Assembly: GCA_963793095.1 (NCBI GenBank)
Contig: CAWBYY010000011.1
Span: 277,034 to 341,033 of the forward strand
DNA length: 64,000 nucleotides
Source of the DNA: an uncultured Chloroflexia bacterium
GTDB taxonomy: Bacteria > Chloroflexota > Anaerolineae > Anaerolineales > UBA4823
Direction of reading: 5' to 3'
A program made the position numbers and the translations under genes. Below are positions 32,809 to 39,108 of this stretch, one piece after another. The notes under the pieces are model-generated. The model searched no databases and was not told where the DNA came from. It was given only the letters and a program-made list of their open reading frames with translations. How positions within the stretch are numbered: the stretch's first letter is position 1; each line of letters opens with the position of its first letter.

Positions 32809-34460
32809 TCAGTAAGTCATGGCGCAGCCGTCGGCCCTTGGATCGCTGCCAGCGCAAAGCACCCCGTCTTGCGGATTTCTGAGGATGATCTGTCCCAGGC
32901 CGTATAAGTGAAACAACCCCTCCGACCCGGGCTGGATATCGTGACCTATATCAGAAAGTTTCCGGAAAACTTCAGCAGGCATGCCGCTTTCAAGCGCCAG
33001 CTGCCCTCCCGCTTCTCCGTTAGTAATGCAGAAGCGTGGGCGGTCAAGAGCGGATTGAGGGTCCAGGCCGTCGTCGATCAGCCCGGTGAGCACCTGCACA
33101 TGCCCCTGAGGCTGCATGAACCCGCCCATAACTCCGAAACAGGCGTACAGTTCTTCCTTAGGATCGCCTCTAGTTCTGCCCTCAAGCGGGGTTGTGACCA
33201 GCCCGGGGATGATCGTGTGGTAAGGGCGTTTTCCCGGTTCGAGCGCATTGGGGTGGGCAGGGTCCAGGCTGAAGTTTGCGCCGCGGTTCTGCAGGCTGAA
33301 TCCCCAGCCAGGCGGCACAATGCCGGTGCCGAAGCCCATATAGTTACTGTTGATGAAAGAACAGGCGTTGCCAGCCCCATCCATAACGCTCAGGTATACC
33401 GTATCTGATGAAGCAAAAGGGCTGCCTTTAACCTGGTCAAGGGTGGCTCTTTCCCGGTCGATCAATTTGCGTCTCTGTTCTGCGTAATCTTTTGAAAGCA
33501 GGGCTTCGACCGGCGCCGGATTAAATTCCGGATCGGCGATATACCCGCACGCATCTGCAAAAGCCAGCCGCATTGCCTCAATCTCAAGGTGGAGCCGGGA
33601 GGCGGAAAGCGGTTCAAGCGAACCCAGGTCAAAGCCTTCCAGGATGTTGAGCGCCAGCAGGGCGGCCAGCCCCTGCCCGTTGGGGGGGCATTCCCAGACC
33701 CGCAGCCCGCGGTAGATGGTGCTGATTGGCGTCACCCATGCGCTGCGGTGGGCGCCAAGGTCTTCTTCACTCAGGCAGCCGCCCGCTGTCCGGACCACAT
33801 TCACAACTGCGCGCCCGATCTCCCCGCTGTAAAACCCGTTTTTTCCCTCCCTGGCGATGACTTTGAAGGAGCGCGCCAGGCCGGGGTTTCTGAACAACTG
33901 GCCCGCCTGGGGGGCTTCCCATTGACTGTCAATTCAAGGCCTCCCGGAGCTGTCCGGAGTTGTTTTTCAAACCCTTTTTCCCAGAAGTGGGCGGTCACCG
34001 GCGAGACCGGAAAACCATTTTCAGCCAGGCGGATCGCCGGGCTCAGCACCTCAGCCATGGACAGGGTCCCGAAGCGTTCAACCAGGTCGCACCAGCCGGC
34101 CGGTGCGCCCGGGACTGTGATCGTGTAGGGATGGAATGGTGGCAGTTCCCGGTCCAGGCCTTCCCGGCGCAGGCGCTCTATTGTCAAGCCTTGCGGGGCG
34201 CGACCGGAACCATTGAGGGCGTGGACACTGCCGGAATCGGCCTGATAATAAAGGGCAAAACAATCCCCGCCCAGTCCGGTTGAGGTGGGCTCGGTGACAT
34301 TCAGGGCTGCAGCTGTCGCAACGGCCGCGTCAGCGGCGTTCCCGCCGCCTGACAGGATCTCGAGCCCGGCCGCGACCGCCAGCGGTTGGGAGGTCGCAAC
34401 CATGCCGCGCGTCCCGTAAACCGGTGAACGTGCGCTATTATTCGAGCTATAGGACTTCAA
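32809..34460 (-). CDS. ggt: Gamma-glutamyltransferase, one frame break
   Basis: ORFs 33801..34460 (N-terminal) and 32809..33897 (contains the SDTVYLSV autoprocessing Thr region) are consecutive. The break is at the G6 run 33909-33914. Confidence 0.85.
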
Positions 34461-35516
34461 TTCCAGCGCCTTCGATTACCTCCCCGACAAGCCACAGTTC
34501 CTGCCCTGCCGCTGACCCTGCCTGGAGCATATCATTCAGCCGGTCTGCAGGGACGGAAATCAGCAAACCGCCGCTGGTCTGGGCGTCAAACAGCAGCATC
34601 CTGGAGGGCTCATCAATTTTGGAGGCAAAATCCACATATTCAGCATAATAAAGCCGGTTATCAATGGATCCCCCAGGAAATACCCAATCCTTTGCATACC
34701 CTGCTGCACCGGAAAGAAAGGGGATGCTTTCAAAGTCGAACCGGAACCTGACCCCAGAGGCGGACGCCATTTCATAAGCATGACCCAGCAGGCTGAAACC
34801 GGTGATGTCAGTACCCGAGCGGACTCTAAACCGGCTGGCGAGTTCTGAAGCGGTTTTGTTCAGGCGTTTCATCCAACCAACGGCATTCTCCAGATATTCG
34901 GCTTGAACAATCCCGCGCTTGAGCGCAGTGGAGATCGTCCCGGTGCCGATTGGTTTGCTGAGTACCAGCCTTTCCCCGGGTGCGGCGTTCATTTTTGTAA
35001 TGATTTTGTCCGGTTCGACAAAACCAAGCACGATCAGGCCGTATTTCGGTTCTTTGTCCTGGATTGTGTGACCGCCGGCGAGCACAACGCCGGCCTCCTG
35101 AGCCTTTTCTGCGCCGCCGCGAAAATCTCAGCGCTGATCTCGCCGGGGAGGTCCGGAGGCAGGGCGGCGATATTCAAGGCCAGGAAGGGCTGCCCGCCCA
35201 TGGCGTAAACGTCTGACAAAGCGTTGGCAGCCGCGATCGCGCCGTAGTCATAGGGGTCATCCACAACCGGGGTGAAGAAATCCGTGGTCGCAACCAGGGC
35301 GCGATCGTCGTCGATCCGCCAGACCGCGGCGTCGTCGCTTTCACCCAGGCCGACCAACAAATCGGGGTAGTCTGCAGATTGGTATATCTCTTTCAGCGGG
35401 CGCAGCACCTGCGCCAGAGCTTCAGCGCTCAGTTTCGAAGCTCAACCGGCGCAATCCGAAAGACTGGTCAGGCGGATCATTTTCCCGGAAGGGGATTTGG
35501 TTCCGTTGTCATCCAT
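34447..35516 (-). CDS. selD: Selenide, water dikinase (selenophosphate synthetase); in-frame UGA (Sec) at 35442-35444; one frame break
   Basis: ATG at 35516 gives [38 protein letters not shown].., in frame with track ORF 35034..35408. The UGA aligns with Cys17 of E. coli SelD (GAGCGCK). AIR-synthase-like body. The frame break at the A4 run 35122-35125 joins it to ORF 34447..35085. Confidence 0.8.
35417..35444 (-). other. SECIS-like hairpin starting within the selD UGA
   Basis: Minus strand: U-GAGCUUC-GAAACUGAGCGCU-GAAGCUC, a 7-bp stem with a 13-nt loop. Confidence 0.55.
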
Positions 35517-36867: not shown

Positions 36868-37872
36868 TCAAGATGGTGGCAGGGGCAGGCCGATGGCCTC
36901 TTTCACTTGCCGGATAGTCTCTCTGGCGATCAGGCTGGCCCGTTTCTGTCCGTCGCTGAGAATATCCCACACCAAACCGGGGTCCCGCGCCAGTTCCGCC
37001 CGCTTCTCCCGGAAAGGTCCCAGGTGGGCGTTCAGGCTGCCGGCGAATAAACGTTTGCAGTCAACGCAGCCAATTTCAGCCCGGCGGCATTCAAAGTTTA
37101 TTTTTTCGACTTCAACTTCGGATGTGAAGATCTTATGCATTGAAAAAACGTTGCAAACATCCGGGTCTCCCGGATCAGATCTGCGCTTGCGTTGGGGGTC
37201 TGTAACCATCATCATCACCCTGCGGGTGGTCTCTTCGGGGGTTGCAGCCAGTTCAATGTGATTATCCAGGCTCTTGCTCATTTTTTGCATGCCATCGATG
37301 CCGAGCACTTTGGGTACCTCAGTCGCTTTCATCCGGGGTTCGACCAGTACATTCGTGTTGTAGCGGTGGTGGAACGAGCGAACCACCTCGCGGGCAAACT
37401 CGAGATGGGGAGCCTGGTCGACACCTACCGGCACGGTATCGGCTTTATATAATGCAATGTCAGCCGCCATCAGGACCGGGTATCCAACCAGCCCGTAGTT
37501 AATGTTCTGGGGCTGCATGCGGACCTTATCCTTGAATGTCGGCAGGTCGGTCAACTTGCCAAGCGGTGTGACCATTGAGAAGAAAATATGCAGTTCGGTG
37601 ACTTCCGGAACCTGGGATTGGATGAAGACAATCGTCTCTTCCGGCCGGATGCCAGCTGCCAGCCAGTCGAGAGCCATCTCATACGTGTTCTGGTTAAGAT
37701 CCTCAGTGGTTTTAACGGTTGTCAGGGCGTGAATATCGACAATGCAGTACACACAGTCATATTCATCCTGCAGGGCGACATAATTTTTAATCGCGCCCAG
37801 ATAATTCCCCAGGTGCTGTTTGCCGGTCGGTCTGGCTCCGGAGAACACCCTGCCTTTCTTCTTATTGGTCAT
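36868..37872 (-). CDS. trpS: Tryptophan--tRNA ligase
   Basis: 334 aa with a class I HIGH-like PTGKQHLGNYLGA and KMSKS. Confidence 0.95.
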   Translation of the reverse strand: MTNKKKGRVFSGARPTGKQHLGNYLGAIKNYVALQDEYDCVYCIVDIHALTTVKTTEDLNQNTYEMALDWLAAGIRPEETIVFIQSQVPEVTELHIFFSMVTPLGKLTDLPTFKDKVRMQPQNINYGLVGYPVLMAADIALYKADTVPVGVDQAPHLEFAREVVRSFHHRYNTNVLVEPRMKATEVPKVLGIDGMQKMSKSLDNHIELAATPEETTRRVMMMVTDPQRKRRSDPGDPDVCNVFSMHKIFTSEVEVEKINFECRRAEIGCVDCKRLFAGSLNAHLGPFREKRAELARDPGLVWDILSDGQKRASLIARETIRQVKEAIGLPLPPS

Positions 37873-38120
37873 GCGTGCTCCTTGAGATAATTGCGTACCA
37901 GTTTGTTGATCTCGCCTTTATCAACATGGCGGTTTGTCCCCAGTTTCGAATACAAAAGGTCGCCGTTAACCGAAAATTCAAACCGGCCTCCATCTGAAGG
38001 AACCAGGGTGAACGAGTCTGTTTTGAATTCGAATTCACTCAACACATCGGCCATCACACTGACAGCTCTATCAGTGTAATGTCAAGCAGCGCAGTAGACC
38101 AGTTCAATTTTCATTAACAT
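37869..38120 (-). CDS. SelW/Rdx-family selenoprotein (CxxU), in-frame UGA at 38082-38084
   Basis: ATG at 38120 with AAAGGAG 7 nt upstream gives MLMKIELVYCAA-U-HYTDRAVSVMADVLSEF..GGRFEFSVNGDLLYSK... The track shows only the part after the UGA (37869..38057). The stop overlaps the trpS start (ATGA). Confidence 0.75.
38052..38084 (-). other. SECIS-like hairpin immediately 3' of the selW-like UGA
   Basis: UGA-CAUUACACUGA-UAGAGCUG-UCAGUGUGAUG, an 11-bp stem (one G-U pair) with an 8-nt loop. Confidence 0.65.
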
Positions 38121-38124
38121 GATT

Positions 38125-38472
38125 TTTCTCCTTTAATCGCGGTGTTAAAGAATAAACCCGTCGGTGATGCGACGGGATTTGGAGCCAGCTTCACTACAAA
38201 TTCGGAAGTTATTTGATGTTTTTGGACAGTAAAAATCAATGACCGCGCTTGATAAAGCGCATACAAACTTCCGGTCTGAGCCTGGTAACGGCGGCAATTC
38301 CGGCCCGGGATACTTGCCCATTCCTGGAGAATACGACAGTCAGAAATTGATGGGGGTTCACCCTGCAGCTCAGAGGTCCATTCAACGCTGACGTAAGGGT
38401 GGATCTTTCACCATCGTCCACTCTCTGTACCTCCGTTTCGGCGCTTACTCGTCCTCTTCAAGGCTTTTTTTC
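38125..38472 (-). promoter_or_regulatory. T-box-like leader RNA with Trp (UGG) specifier upstream of selW-like/trpS
   Basis: Minus strand: AGUA (38446-38449), AGAGAG (38421-38426), GGUGAAAG distal-loop-like (38405-38412), GAA-UGG-A specifier-like (UGG 38378-38380), T-box-like AGCUGGCUCC (38181-38190), then a terminator. Confidence 0.55.
38147..38176 (-). terminator. Leader terminator of the T-box-like element
   Basis: CCCGUCG-CAUCAC-CGACGGG followed by UUUAUUCUUU, 27 nt upstream of the selW-like ATG. Confidence 0.7.
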
Positions 38473-38478
38473 GTTGAA

Positions 38479-38507
38479 ATTGTAAGTGTAGTATATCACA
38501 ATATAAA
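38479..38507 (-). promoter_or_regulatory. Candidate promoter for the T-box leader
   Basis: TTTATA, a 17-nt spacer, then TACAAT on the minus strand. Confidence 0.4.
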
Positions 38508-38556
38508 CGGACAGCGGTGATGGTCGCCAGCAGGCAGACGGGGGATTAAATCAGGT

Positions 38557-38829
38557 TTAATTTACGATTTCCCAGCTGATCAGGGTCTGCCGAAGCTCTG
38601 ATTTGCTGTGCAGGTCGAACTTGTCGAGAATGTTTCGAACGTGAATTTTTACCGTCTCGCGTGAAATACCGAGTTTCTCCGCAATCTGGGGGTTGGTGAT
38701 CAACCTGCTGCCGTTCTCCTGGCAGATAAGTCTGGCGATCTCCCGTTCGCGCGGGGTCAGTTTTTTCCAGGAAGACCACGGAGAAAGTCTAGCGGTTCGG
38801 TTAATCACATATGCGAATGCATCATCCAT
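38557..38829 (-). CDS. LuxR/GerE-type HTH DNA-binding protein
   Basis: LTPREREIARLI..ITNPQIAEKLGISRETVKIHVRNILDKF. ATG at 38829 lies within track ORF 38557..38943. Confidence 0.75.
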   Translation of the reverse strand: MDDAFAYVINRTARLSPWSSWKKLTPREREIARLICQENGSRLITNPQIAEKLGISRETVKIHVRNILDKFDLHSKSELRQTLISWEIVN

Positions 38830-39108
38830 AAACGATTTACTCCTGAACCAAATAATGAATAAAAACCTGCGCAAATTAGCGCCCATTAATAAATTTCTTA
38901 ACCTGGCAGGTAAAAATCCGCCTGGCTGATTATTTTGTTGCAAGGTTTGTACCTCTCACCTTCCCGGTCTGTTCCAGCGGCCATTGATTATGCTAGAATC
39001 TTATATGGGACGACCGGTAATTGTTTTTGTTGGATAAAGGATCGTAAAGGATCCAAAAATTTCAGCTGGCAGGGTTTTTGGAAACAGGATATAAAAAGGG
39101 AGAAAAAT

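Follow-up and report, generated by a model that had tools for sequence, protein, structure and literature searches.

T-box riboswitches are the textbook case of an RNA that senses tRNA charging, and the solved structures of their discriminator domains rest on the conserved T-box bulge together with helices A1 and A2. In the discriminator structures of 2019, it is reportedly through helix A2 that the aminoacylation state is sensed. T-boxes of the Chloroflexi (ileS, trpE and trpB-like, in Dehalococcoides) and tandem complete T-boxes of the Firmicutes have been described (PMC2494555, PMC3766115), and for Trp the matching of UGGN to the discriminator has been noted in TBDB. The element considered here is a leader on the minus strand of a window of 64,000 nucleotides, the whole stretch of DNA analysed, from an uncultured Chloroflexia bacterium (assembly GCA_963793095.1, contig CAWBYY010000011.1), where it precedes an Rdx (SelW-like) selenoprotein gene and trpS, the gene for tryptophanyl-tRNA synthetase (TrpRS). 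Comparative and thermodynamic evidence suggests that it is probably a T-box-derived transcription attenuator, sensing tRNA-Trp and controlling the operon of the Rdx selenoprotein and the sole, Fe-S-type TrpRS through a proposed antiterminator (AT1) and an intrinsic terminator (T1).

The leader, its switch region and related leaders

On sequence grounds, the leader is a genuine T-box-type element with a Trp (UGG) specifier. A match to the Rfam T-box model RF00230 was obtained at 38196..38470 of the minus strand (61.1 bits, E 1.1e-12) when 37800..38700 was scanned with permissive filters, and a scan of the whole window at gathering thresholds gave zero Rfam matches; the RF00230 scan that an earlier note on this DNA had proposed was thus positive in the one form and empty in the other. 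With the same model nine orthologous Rdx-trpS leaders scored 58-74 bits, eight Rdx-trpS loci without a leader gave no match, and seven of the eight T-box matches in the source genome (L001-L008) stayed below the gathering threshold of 93 bits, only one lying above it. The 5' half of the leader aligned to RF00230 at high posterior probability and the 3' half was essentially unaligned, the poor alignment of the latter to the covariance model being due to the expansion of hairpin IIIa to a three-way junction. In this hairpin GGAAGUU (38272..38266) pairs with AACUUCC (38210..38204) and encloses hairpins at 38260..38245 and 38239..38213, at a site where relatives have a simple GGGUAU...GUACCC hairpin. 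Compensatory changes were found in 17 of the 21 Stem I pairs (RNAalifold, 26 Trp leaders), GAAUGG is present in 10 of 10 leaders found by synteny alone, and the UGG specifier, in agreement with the downstream trpS, is kept in all orthologous leaders. AAGUA and CCGUUA are conserved in the RF00230 alignment of Stem II and the predicted IIA/B pseudoknot. The motifs that the earlier note had listed on the minus strand (AGUA, AGAGAG, GGUGAAAG, GAA-UGG-A, AGCUGGCUCC and a terminator) all lie where it had placed them, and its reading of UGG 38378-38380, followed by a purine, as the Trp specifier was borne out by the RF00230 alignment and by the orthologues. It had also rightly seen no credible open reading frame (ORF) upstream of Rdx, ORF 38236..38421 being only mechanical; attenuation by a leader peptide was rejected, this ORF of 61 codons having no Trp codon.

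The 3' domain of the leader is laid out as GUGAAGC-UGGC-UCC and a short spacer, followed by T1. The terminator scan found T1 as one site, made up of CCCGUCG (38176..38170), the loop CAUCAC, CGACGGG (38163..38157) and the U-tract UUUAUUCUUU (38156..38147), and ending 26 nt before the AUG at 38120, in accord with the strong terminator shortly before the start codon of the earlier note. The sequence AGCUGGCUCC (38190..38181, minus strand), which includes UGGC, had been described there as a degenerate T-box sequence. Its UGGC does fit, as had been proposed, a G73 discriminator: the genome's tRNA-Trp(CCA) has G73, and the GCCA-3' end is complementary to UGGC at 38187..38184. The module as a whole nevertheless differs from a canonical T-box. 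The conserved T-box sequence (about AGGGUGGNACCGCG) is missing from the leader, just GCUGGCU being present, and the pattern RGGYGGNACC has no match between Stem I and the start codon of any Rdx-trpS leader. An antiterminator of A1, 7-nt bulge and A2 could not be drawn either, in the leader or in any orthologue, because the spacer between UGGC and the terminator loop is 1-30 nt long and pyrimidine-rich and yields no A2 helix. The folding of antiterminator and terminator suggested by the earlier note gave T1 and a competing AT1, but not the standard antiterminator. Six non-Trp T-box leaders of the source genome carry textbook boxes (RGGUGGNACCRCG).

The case for AT1 comes from comparison of related leaders. 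The leader samples overlap, and the module counts refer to 46-60 non-redundant Anaerolineae Trp leaders, varying by analysis. An initial survey pattern (GTGARGCTGGC...GSAKCAC) included the module, with many chance matches in GC-rich genomes and a biased sample, and the survey was repeated with a Stem-I-only pattern; AT1 3' strands were set by hairpin-based trimming. GUGARGCUGGCU and the terminator loop GCAUCAC are common to all Rdx-trpS leaders, as the UGG Stem I is to the orthologous leaders; this is the comparison with the trpS leaders of relatives that the earlier note had proposed. The T1 stem itself occurs in 17 covarying types (e.g., CCGUCG/CGGCGG, CCGUUG/CAACGG, CCUGUG/CACAGG, CCCUGC/GCAGGG), and conservation of the loop above covarying stems indicates an alternative pairing of the loop. 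Such a pairing, GUGA-R-GC:GC-A-UCAC, has the lowest energy in most copies when the nascent transcript is folded as far as the loop end. Over 46 non-redundant leaders the T1 loop region is complementary to the AT1 5' strand at a mean of 5.76 out of 7 positions, with 6 or more in 34 of them, and this mean was reached by none of 5000 loop shuffles. Of 40 T1 loop regions 29 contain UCAC, as against 1 of 29 loops of the second terminator (T2) in these leaders, and the T2 loops show no AT1-like complementarity. Among 60 non-redundant leaders GUGARGC hardly varies; 59 of them have UGGC and one has UGGU.

Several variants of the two strands retain the pairing. In GCUUCAC and GUCUCAC the usual R·A mismatch becomes G·U or G-C, and the G6-C2' pair becomes A-U in GUGAAAC/GUGUCAC (L140), GUGAGAC/GUCGCAC (L096, L098) and GUGAGAC/GUCUGAC (L101, L102); GUGUAC/GUAUCAC (L175) likewise keeps it. 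Relatives whose T1 loop has just 3-5 nt show an overlap of 2-4 nt between the AT1 3' strand and the T1 stem, the strand entering the stem from either side, so that AT1 and T1 would exclude each other there. Other possibilities were set aside. A register shifted by 3 nt (GUGAGGC:GUCGCAU) receives no support from the GCUUCAC and GUCUCAC variants, a GGC:GUC extension added by RNAfold is not kept in leaders whose stem reads CCCUGUG, and CACCGCG (38144..38138) as the relic of a deleted canonical T-box is missing from the closest relative, L107. The features of the leader and operon are collected in Table 1.

Table 1. Positions of leader, switch and operon features, in the order of transcription
Feature	Position	Strand	Basis or remark
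T-box leader	~38498..38121	minus	between LuxR-type gene stop (38557) and AUG at 38120
Extended -10 box TGATATACT	38490..38498	minus	transcription start would be near 38483
Stem I	38368..38470	minus	RF00230 alignment, covariation
GA/K-turn motif GAGUAAG (contains AGUA)	38450..38444	minus	Stem I
AG box ACAGAGAG (AGAGAG)	38428..38421	minus	Stem I
Distal loop GGUGAAAG	38412..38405	minus	Stem I
Specifier loop GAA-UGG-A	38383..38377	minus	Trp codon UGG 38380..38378, then A
Stem II with S-turn, and Stem IIA/B region	38281..38367	minus	RF00230 alignment
S-turn (AAGUA)	38318..38307	minus	carries 36-nt insertion
Stem IIA/B element CCGGAAUUGCCGCCGUUA	38303..38286	minus	RF00230 alignment
Hairpin IIIa, expanded to three-way junction	38204..38272	minus	RNAfold, -20.6 kcal/mol
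AT1 5' strand GUGAAGC (proposed antiterminator, helix A1 analogue)	38188..38194	minus	complementarity, folding
UGGC, proposed pairing site for tRNA-Trp GCCA-3' end	38184..38187	minus	conservation, G73
Intrinsic terminator T1	38147..38176	minus	terminator scan, -11.3 kcal/mol
AT1 3' strand GCAUCAC	38164..38170	minus	last base of T1 5' strand and entire T1 loop
Shine-Dalgarno AAGGAG	38133..38128	minus	sequence
Rdx start codon AUG	38120..38118	minus	sequence
Rdx/SelW-like selenoprotein gene, 83 codons	37869..38120	minus	PF10262, E 7.9e-15
SECIS-like 13-bp hairpin	38081..38052	minus	fold; starts directly after UGA
trpS, [4Fe-4S]-type TrpRS (predicted)	36868..37872	minus	PF00579, E 2.5e-63

The same module was traced through Rdx-trpS loci and other Trp leaders of the lineage. 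A UGG-specifier Stem I lies upstream of Rdx at 10 of 28 loci (and at 15 loci in a named, partly overlapping sample), and no T-box of any kind was found at 18 of 28 and 52 of 80 Rdx-trpS loci. The Rdx-trpS leaders that do have a T-box (about 25 in overlapping samples, from several genera) all keep the first module only and are without the canonical T-box. The Stem-I-only survey gave 76 matches in 59 of 101 genomes of the order (reversed control, 0), and of 30 loci fetched 29 were real leaders, about 23 of them dual and 6 canonical-only. In most module-bearing Trp leaders, which precede trpE, trpB-like genes or a second trpS, a canonical T-box with a further terminator comes after the module. 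One of these is the other UGG leader of the source genome, which lies outside the window (G000:C2:1377782-1378132, plus strand; L002/L042) upstream of a trpB-like gene and consists of the first module, then CCUAACCAGGGUGGCACCACGG and then a longer second terminator. In the canonical-only leaders (L093, L099) AGGC(UGGC)...GCC(N)GCCU forms Stem III beside the T-box, and the GUGARGC-UGGC module sequence is not conserved.

In the dual leaders T1 sits within the loop of Stem III. The duplex of GAGGCUGGCNNN with the 22 nt before the canonical T-box has a mean energy of -14.7 kcal/mol, as compared with -7.9 kcal/mol for shuffles (30 leaders), and Stem III shows compensatory extensions (GGCCUUU/AAAGGC, GGCCUG/CAGGCC). 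Four dual leaders with a G6-to-A change (L096, L098, L101, L102) carry compensating C-to-U changes in both the T1-loop and the Stem III 3' strands, the Stem IIIb partner changing from GCCU to GUCU. Because both strands covary with it, the segment GAGGCUGGC would pair alternately with two partners. A 3' strand for Stem III is missing from the Rdx-trpS leaders, whose duplex energies equal those of shuffles, and the invariant GCUGGCU in them is therefore not explicable by intramolecular pairing; UGGC in particular is invariant in the leaders with the first module only, where it has no intramolecular partner (no Stem IIIb strand). The sister Trp leaders thus have two switches in series, and the module of the Rdx-trpS leader is the homologue of the first. 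In other Chloroflexota classes 23 of 23 Trp leaders sampled have one canonical T-box and one terminator, with no U-run before the T-box, and a likely history is that of a canonical Trp T-box ancestor, insertion of T1 and AT1 into Stem III in Anaerolineae, and loss of the second module before Rdx-trpS.

Two further observations concern these leaders. In L195-L197, canonical single-switch leaders of another Chloroflexota class, Stem III is formed as AGGCUAUG-CUAUCAC-CAUAGCCU, preceded by GAGCGAGGC, and its loop already contains AUCAC; the Anaerolineae module may have arisen from such a state, or the likeness may be coincidence. About half of the leaders with the first module only have a second YUCAC copy directly 3' of UGGCU (L012, L020, L029, L034, L035, L037, L138, L149, L174, L175, L182). 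This copy can pair with GUGAR, the combinations GUGAG/CUCAC and GUGAA/UUCAC covarying, and would thereby form a small hairpin with GCUGGCU in its loop that may act as an anti-antiterminator. The window leader instead has a lineage-specific AUUUG/CAAAU hairpin around that segment.

Mechanism and rival explanations

In the mechanism proposed for the leader, uncharged tRNA-Trp would dock with its anticodon on UGG and with its elbow on the Stem I platform, and its GCCA-3' end would pair with UGGC and stack on AT1, as it does beside helix A1 in the canonical T-box, with hairpin IIIa and a linker of 5-9 nt substituting for Stem III. AT1 stabilised in this manner would be favoured over T1 while RNA polymerase passes, giving read-through. 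Both tRNA dependence and charge sensing by the AT1/T1 switch are features that we infer from the sequence comparisons. A single TrpRS gene, this trpS, was found in the genome (one match; the genome is 90% complete), and as a sole copy it requires that read-through of T1 be regulated or at least substantial. For the dual leaders, GAGGCUGGC may later re-pair with GCCNGCCU to form Stem III, by which the 3' end of the tRNA would be freed for the second UGGC. A two-checkpoint T-box of this kind, in which one tRNA-Trp bound to Stem I would first stabilise the A2-less AT1 nested in the Stem III loop and, once polymerase has passed T1, would have its 3' end handed over by Stem III to the canonical T-box that controls T2, with the Rdx-trpS leader being the first switch alone, is put forward tentatively, at somewhat under an even chance. 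If it is true, the Rdx-trpS leader would be a natural experiment in which a minimal first switch regulates unaided, and an uncharacterised bacterial SelW-like selenoprotein would be functionally tied to the Fe-S-cluster TrpRS.

A number of points weigh against attenuation through AT1 and T1. The 61.1 bits of the leader lie below the RF00230 gathering threshold, and helix A2, the 7-nt bulge and the canonical T-box sequence are absent from it. Taken by itself AT1 is weak, at about -6.6 kcal/mol where T1 has -11.3 kcal/mol, and in the window leader it overlaps the T1 stem by only 1 nt, so that exclusion there would rest on sterics. Covariation in AT1 is mostly one-sided, the 5' strand and UGGC being nearly invariant; its pairing is weaker in GCAGCAC, GCACCAC and GCAACAC and in L138, L143 and L149; and some orthologous T1s have poor U-tracts (L010, L034, L035, L037). 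The relatives, moreover, are metagenome-assembled genomes of Anaerolineales/Anaerolineaceae, whose kinship causes the counts to overstate independence.

If AGCUGGCUCC were a degenerate T-box sequence within a standard antiterminator of A1, 7-nt bulge and A2, the leader would be an ordinary class I T-box, and the RF00230 matches, the A-G-UGG-N-CC common to GAAGCUGGCUCC and UAGGGUGGNACC, the fit of UGGC to G73 and the usual location after a hairpin would be accounted for. This is highly improbable, as the stretch from UGGC to the terminator loop allows no A2 to be drawn in any leader, the 5' strand pairs with the terminator loop and not with the terminator 5' strand, six other leaders of the genome have the textbook GGGUGGNACCRCG, and module and canonical T-box coexist in sister Trp leaders as different elements. 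The loss of the canonical discriminator could have left a relic with no tRNA response, in which T1 would act as a constitutively leaky attenuator or simply as a place where polymerase pauses; the shortness of T1 (7 bp, -11.3 kcal/mol), the poor U-tracts of several orthologues and the majority of Rdx-trpS loci without any T-box (18/28; 52/80) all point in that direction. Conservation of Stem I, UGG, UGGC, AT1 and the T1 loop in about 25 leaders with the first module only, from several genera, makes a relic very unlikely, for the flanks and hairpin IIIa diverge freely and compensatory pairs are not expected in a dead leader.

Given somewhat more credence, although still unlikely, is a switch in which AT1 and T1 are real but are set otherwise than by the tRNA 3' end, either by Stem I binding alone, which would be charge-blind, or by a protein or small ligand at GUGARGCUGGCU; reading of the charging state in the dual leaders would then fall to the second, canonical module alone. 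It would explain the absence of A2 and an invariance of GUGARGCUGGC that goes far beyond the needs of pairing, and with the full discriminator coming later in the dual leaders the first module need not discriminate. Yet UGGC lies directly 3' of a helix strand, like UGGN in canonical T-boxes, and matches G73; the module is restricted to UGG-specifier leaders of these genomes; and where it stands alone it controls the sole TrpRS, for which a charge-blind switch would be poor feedback. Sensing of the tRNA-Trp 3' end by the AT1/T1 switch is accordingly the reading preferred here, and a conserved leader on an essential synthetase that has Stem I intact, but beyond it just an A1-like helix and UGGC, raises the question of what the minimal sensor of a tRNA 3' end is.

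The Rdx-trpS operon

The earlier note had named a SelW-like selenoprotein gene as the first gene under the leader, followed by trpS, and both identifications stand (PF10262 and PF00579), the PF10262 match spanning 74 of 74 profile positions of the Rdx protein. The N-terminal redox motif of Rdx is YCAAU (CxxU), where U is the in-frame UGA at 38084..38082, and the 13-bp hairpin that follows it is as would be expected for a bacterial selenocysteine insertion sequence (SECIS) element. The trpS start overlaps the Rdx stop codon (ATGA). The gene pair is conserved: Rdx lies directly upstream of orthologous trpS at 28 of 30 loci (one exception being a contig end) and upstream of trpS at 71 of 80 loci in a second, TrpS-selected sample, and the TGA of CxxU is kept in 28 of 28 and 68 of 71 Rdx orthologues, with Cys in the remaining 3. 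A selD gene at 34447-35516 (minus strand) is present in two frames, as ORFs 35034..35408 and 34447..35085, its start hidden by an in-frame stop, and a tRNA-Sec gene was found on contig C2 of the source genome.

In Thermotoga maritima, the [4Fe-4S] TrpRS has the motif C-x22-C-x6-C-x2-C in its anticodon-binding domain (PMC2954223). Four Cys of the window TrpRS align with Cys236/259/266/269 of that enzyme (TM0492, 2g36) with the spacing C-x21-C-x6-C-x2-C, and from these aligned cluster ligands the window TrpRS is predicted to be of the [4Fe-4S] type. Among non-redundant type-1 TrpRS (L009-L186) the C-x21/22-C-x6-C-x2-C motif occurs in 104 of 105 and Rdx upstream in 94 of 105, as compared with 0 of 9 for either feature in type-2 TrpRS (35-42% identity), these being counts of orthologues and not of independent cases. 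The association suggests that the Rdx selenoprotein serves the cluster-bearing TrpRS in a redox partnership. This operon joins a functionally uncharacterised bacterial selenoprotein of the SelW/Rdx kind to a [4Fe-4S]-type TrpRS, and redox care of the cluster cysteines of TrpRS is a testable idea that follows from it.

For the promoter, the extended -10 box TGATATACT is the better candidate, its form UGNUAUACU being found in 8 of 10 orthologous Rdx-trpS leaders about 25-28 nt upstream of Stem I (L013 was uninformative, and L020 is without the box). The TTTATA-17-TACAAT named in the earlier note does exist at 38507..38479, with 9 of 12 consensus matches, but it is not conserved among the orthologous leaders and is probably not the one used. 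A LuxR/GerE-type helix-turn-helix gene (128 aa; 38557-38943, minus strand) ends 59 nt upstream of the leader -10 box, no terminator was predicted between this gene and the leader, and transcription from it may run on into the leader. At Rdx-trpS loci that have no T-box (L014, L016, L019, L030, L033) a conserved common box, CAUGUUAUAAUUUUCUAACAA, is found some 30-110 nt ahead of the Rdx start codon and resembles an extended -10 promoter followed by a conserved element.

Comparison with known T-box systems

In the literature searched, no T-box linked to a selenoprotein and no two terminators behind one Stem I were found, and an earlier description may exist. Because their scores lie below the Rfam gathering threshold, routine annotation misses these leaders, and it would miss most T-box regulation in the lineage. 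With class I T-boxes (RF00230; B. subtilis tyrS, glyQS, trpS) the window leader shares the Stem I motifs, a specifier loop whose codon has a purine after it, Stem II with IIA/B, the hairpin that comes ahead of the 3' domain, a UGGN that fits the discriminator, a terminator opposed by a predicted alternative helix, and predicted control of the cognate synthetase. It differs from them in having neither the conserved 14-nt T-box sequence nor the 7-nt bulge nor helix A2, in an antiterminator whose 3' strand is the terminator loop and not the terminator 5' strand, in its score below gathering, and in a selenoprotein as the first gene regulated. Class II translational T-boxes of Actinobacteria (ileS) illustrate that the scaffold tolerates the loss or reshaping of domains; in these, however, Stem I is shortened, the Shine-Dalgarno sequence is sequestered and the canonical bulge is kept, whereas the window leader has a full-length Stem I, termination control and a changed discriminator.

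Closer to the window leader in phylum are the Chloroflexota leaders of trpE and trpB-like genes (Dehalococcoides, PMC2494555), which have in common with it UGG, the layout of Stem I, Stem II and hairpin IIIa, and UGGC in the T-box. In those sampled from other Chloroflexota classes a single canonical T-box goes with a single terminator (23/23), whereas the window leader is without the canonical T-box and Stem III. Homologous to it in the first module are the dual leaders of Anaerolineae (e.g., G000:C2:1377782-1378132), which share GUGARGC-UGGC, a T1 with the GCAUCAC loop and an upstream hairpin IIIa; these go on to GCCNGCCUAAC, which is the 3' strand of Stem III, then to GGGUGGCACCRCGG and finally to a T2 of greater length, and the window leader ends after T1. 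The dual leaders resemble in turn the tandem T-boxes of Firmicutes trp and thrZ (2-3 complete units in series, PMC2494555) in having several termination checkpoints and in serving tryptophan genes. One decoder with two nested terminators in the sister leaders suggests a sequential hand-off, of which no description was found in the literature searched. The tandem units of Firmicutes have a Stem I each, the dual leaders of Anaerolineae place two terminators behind one Stem I, and the leader of the window is a single unit.

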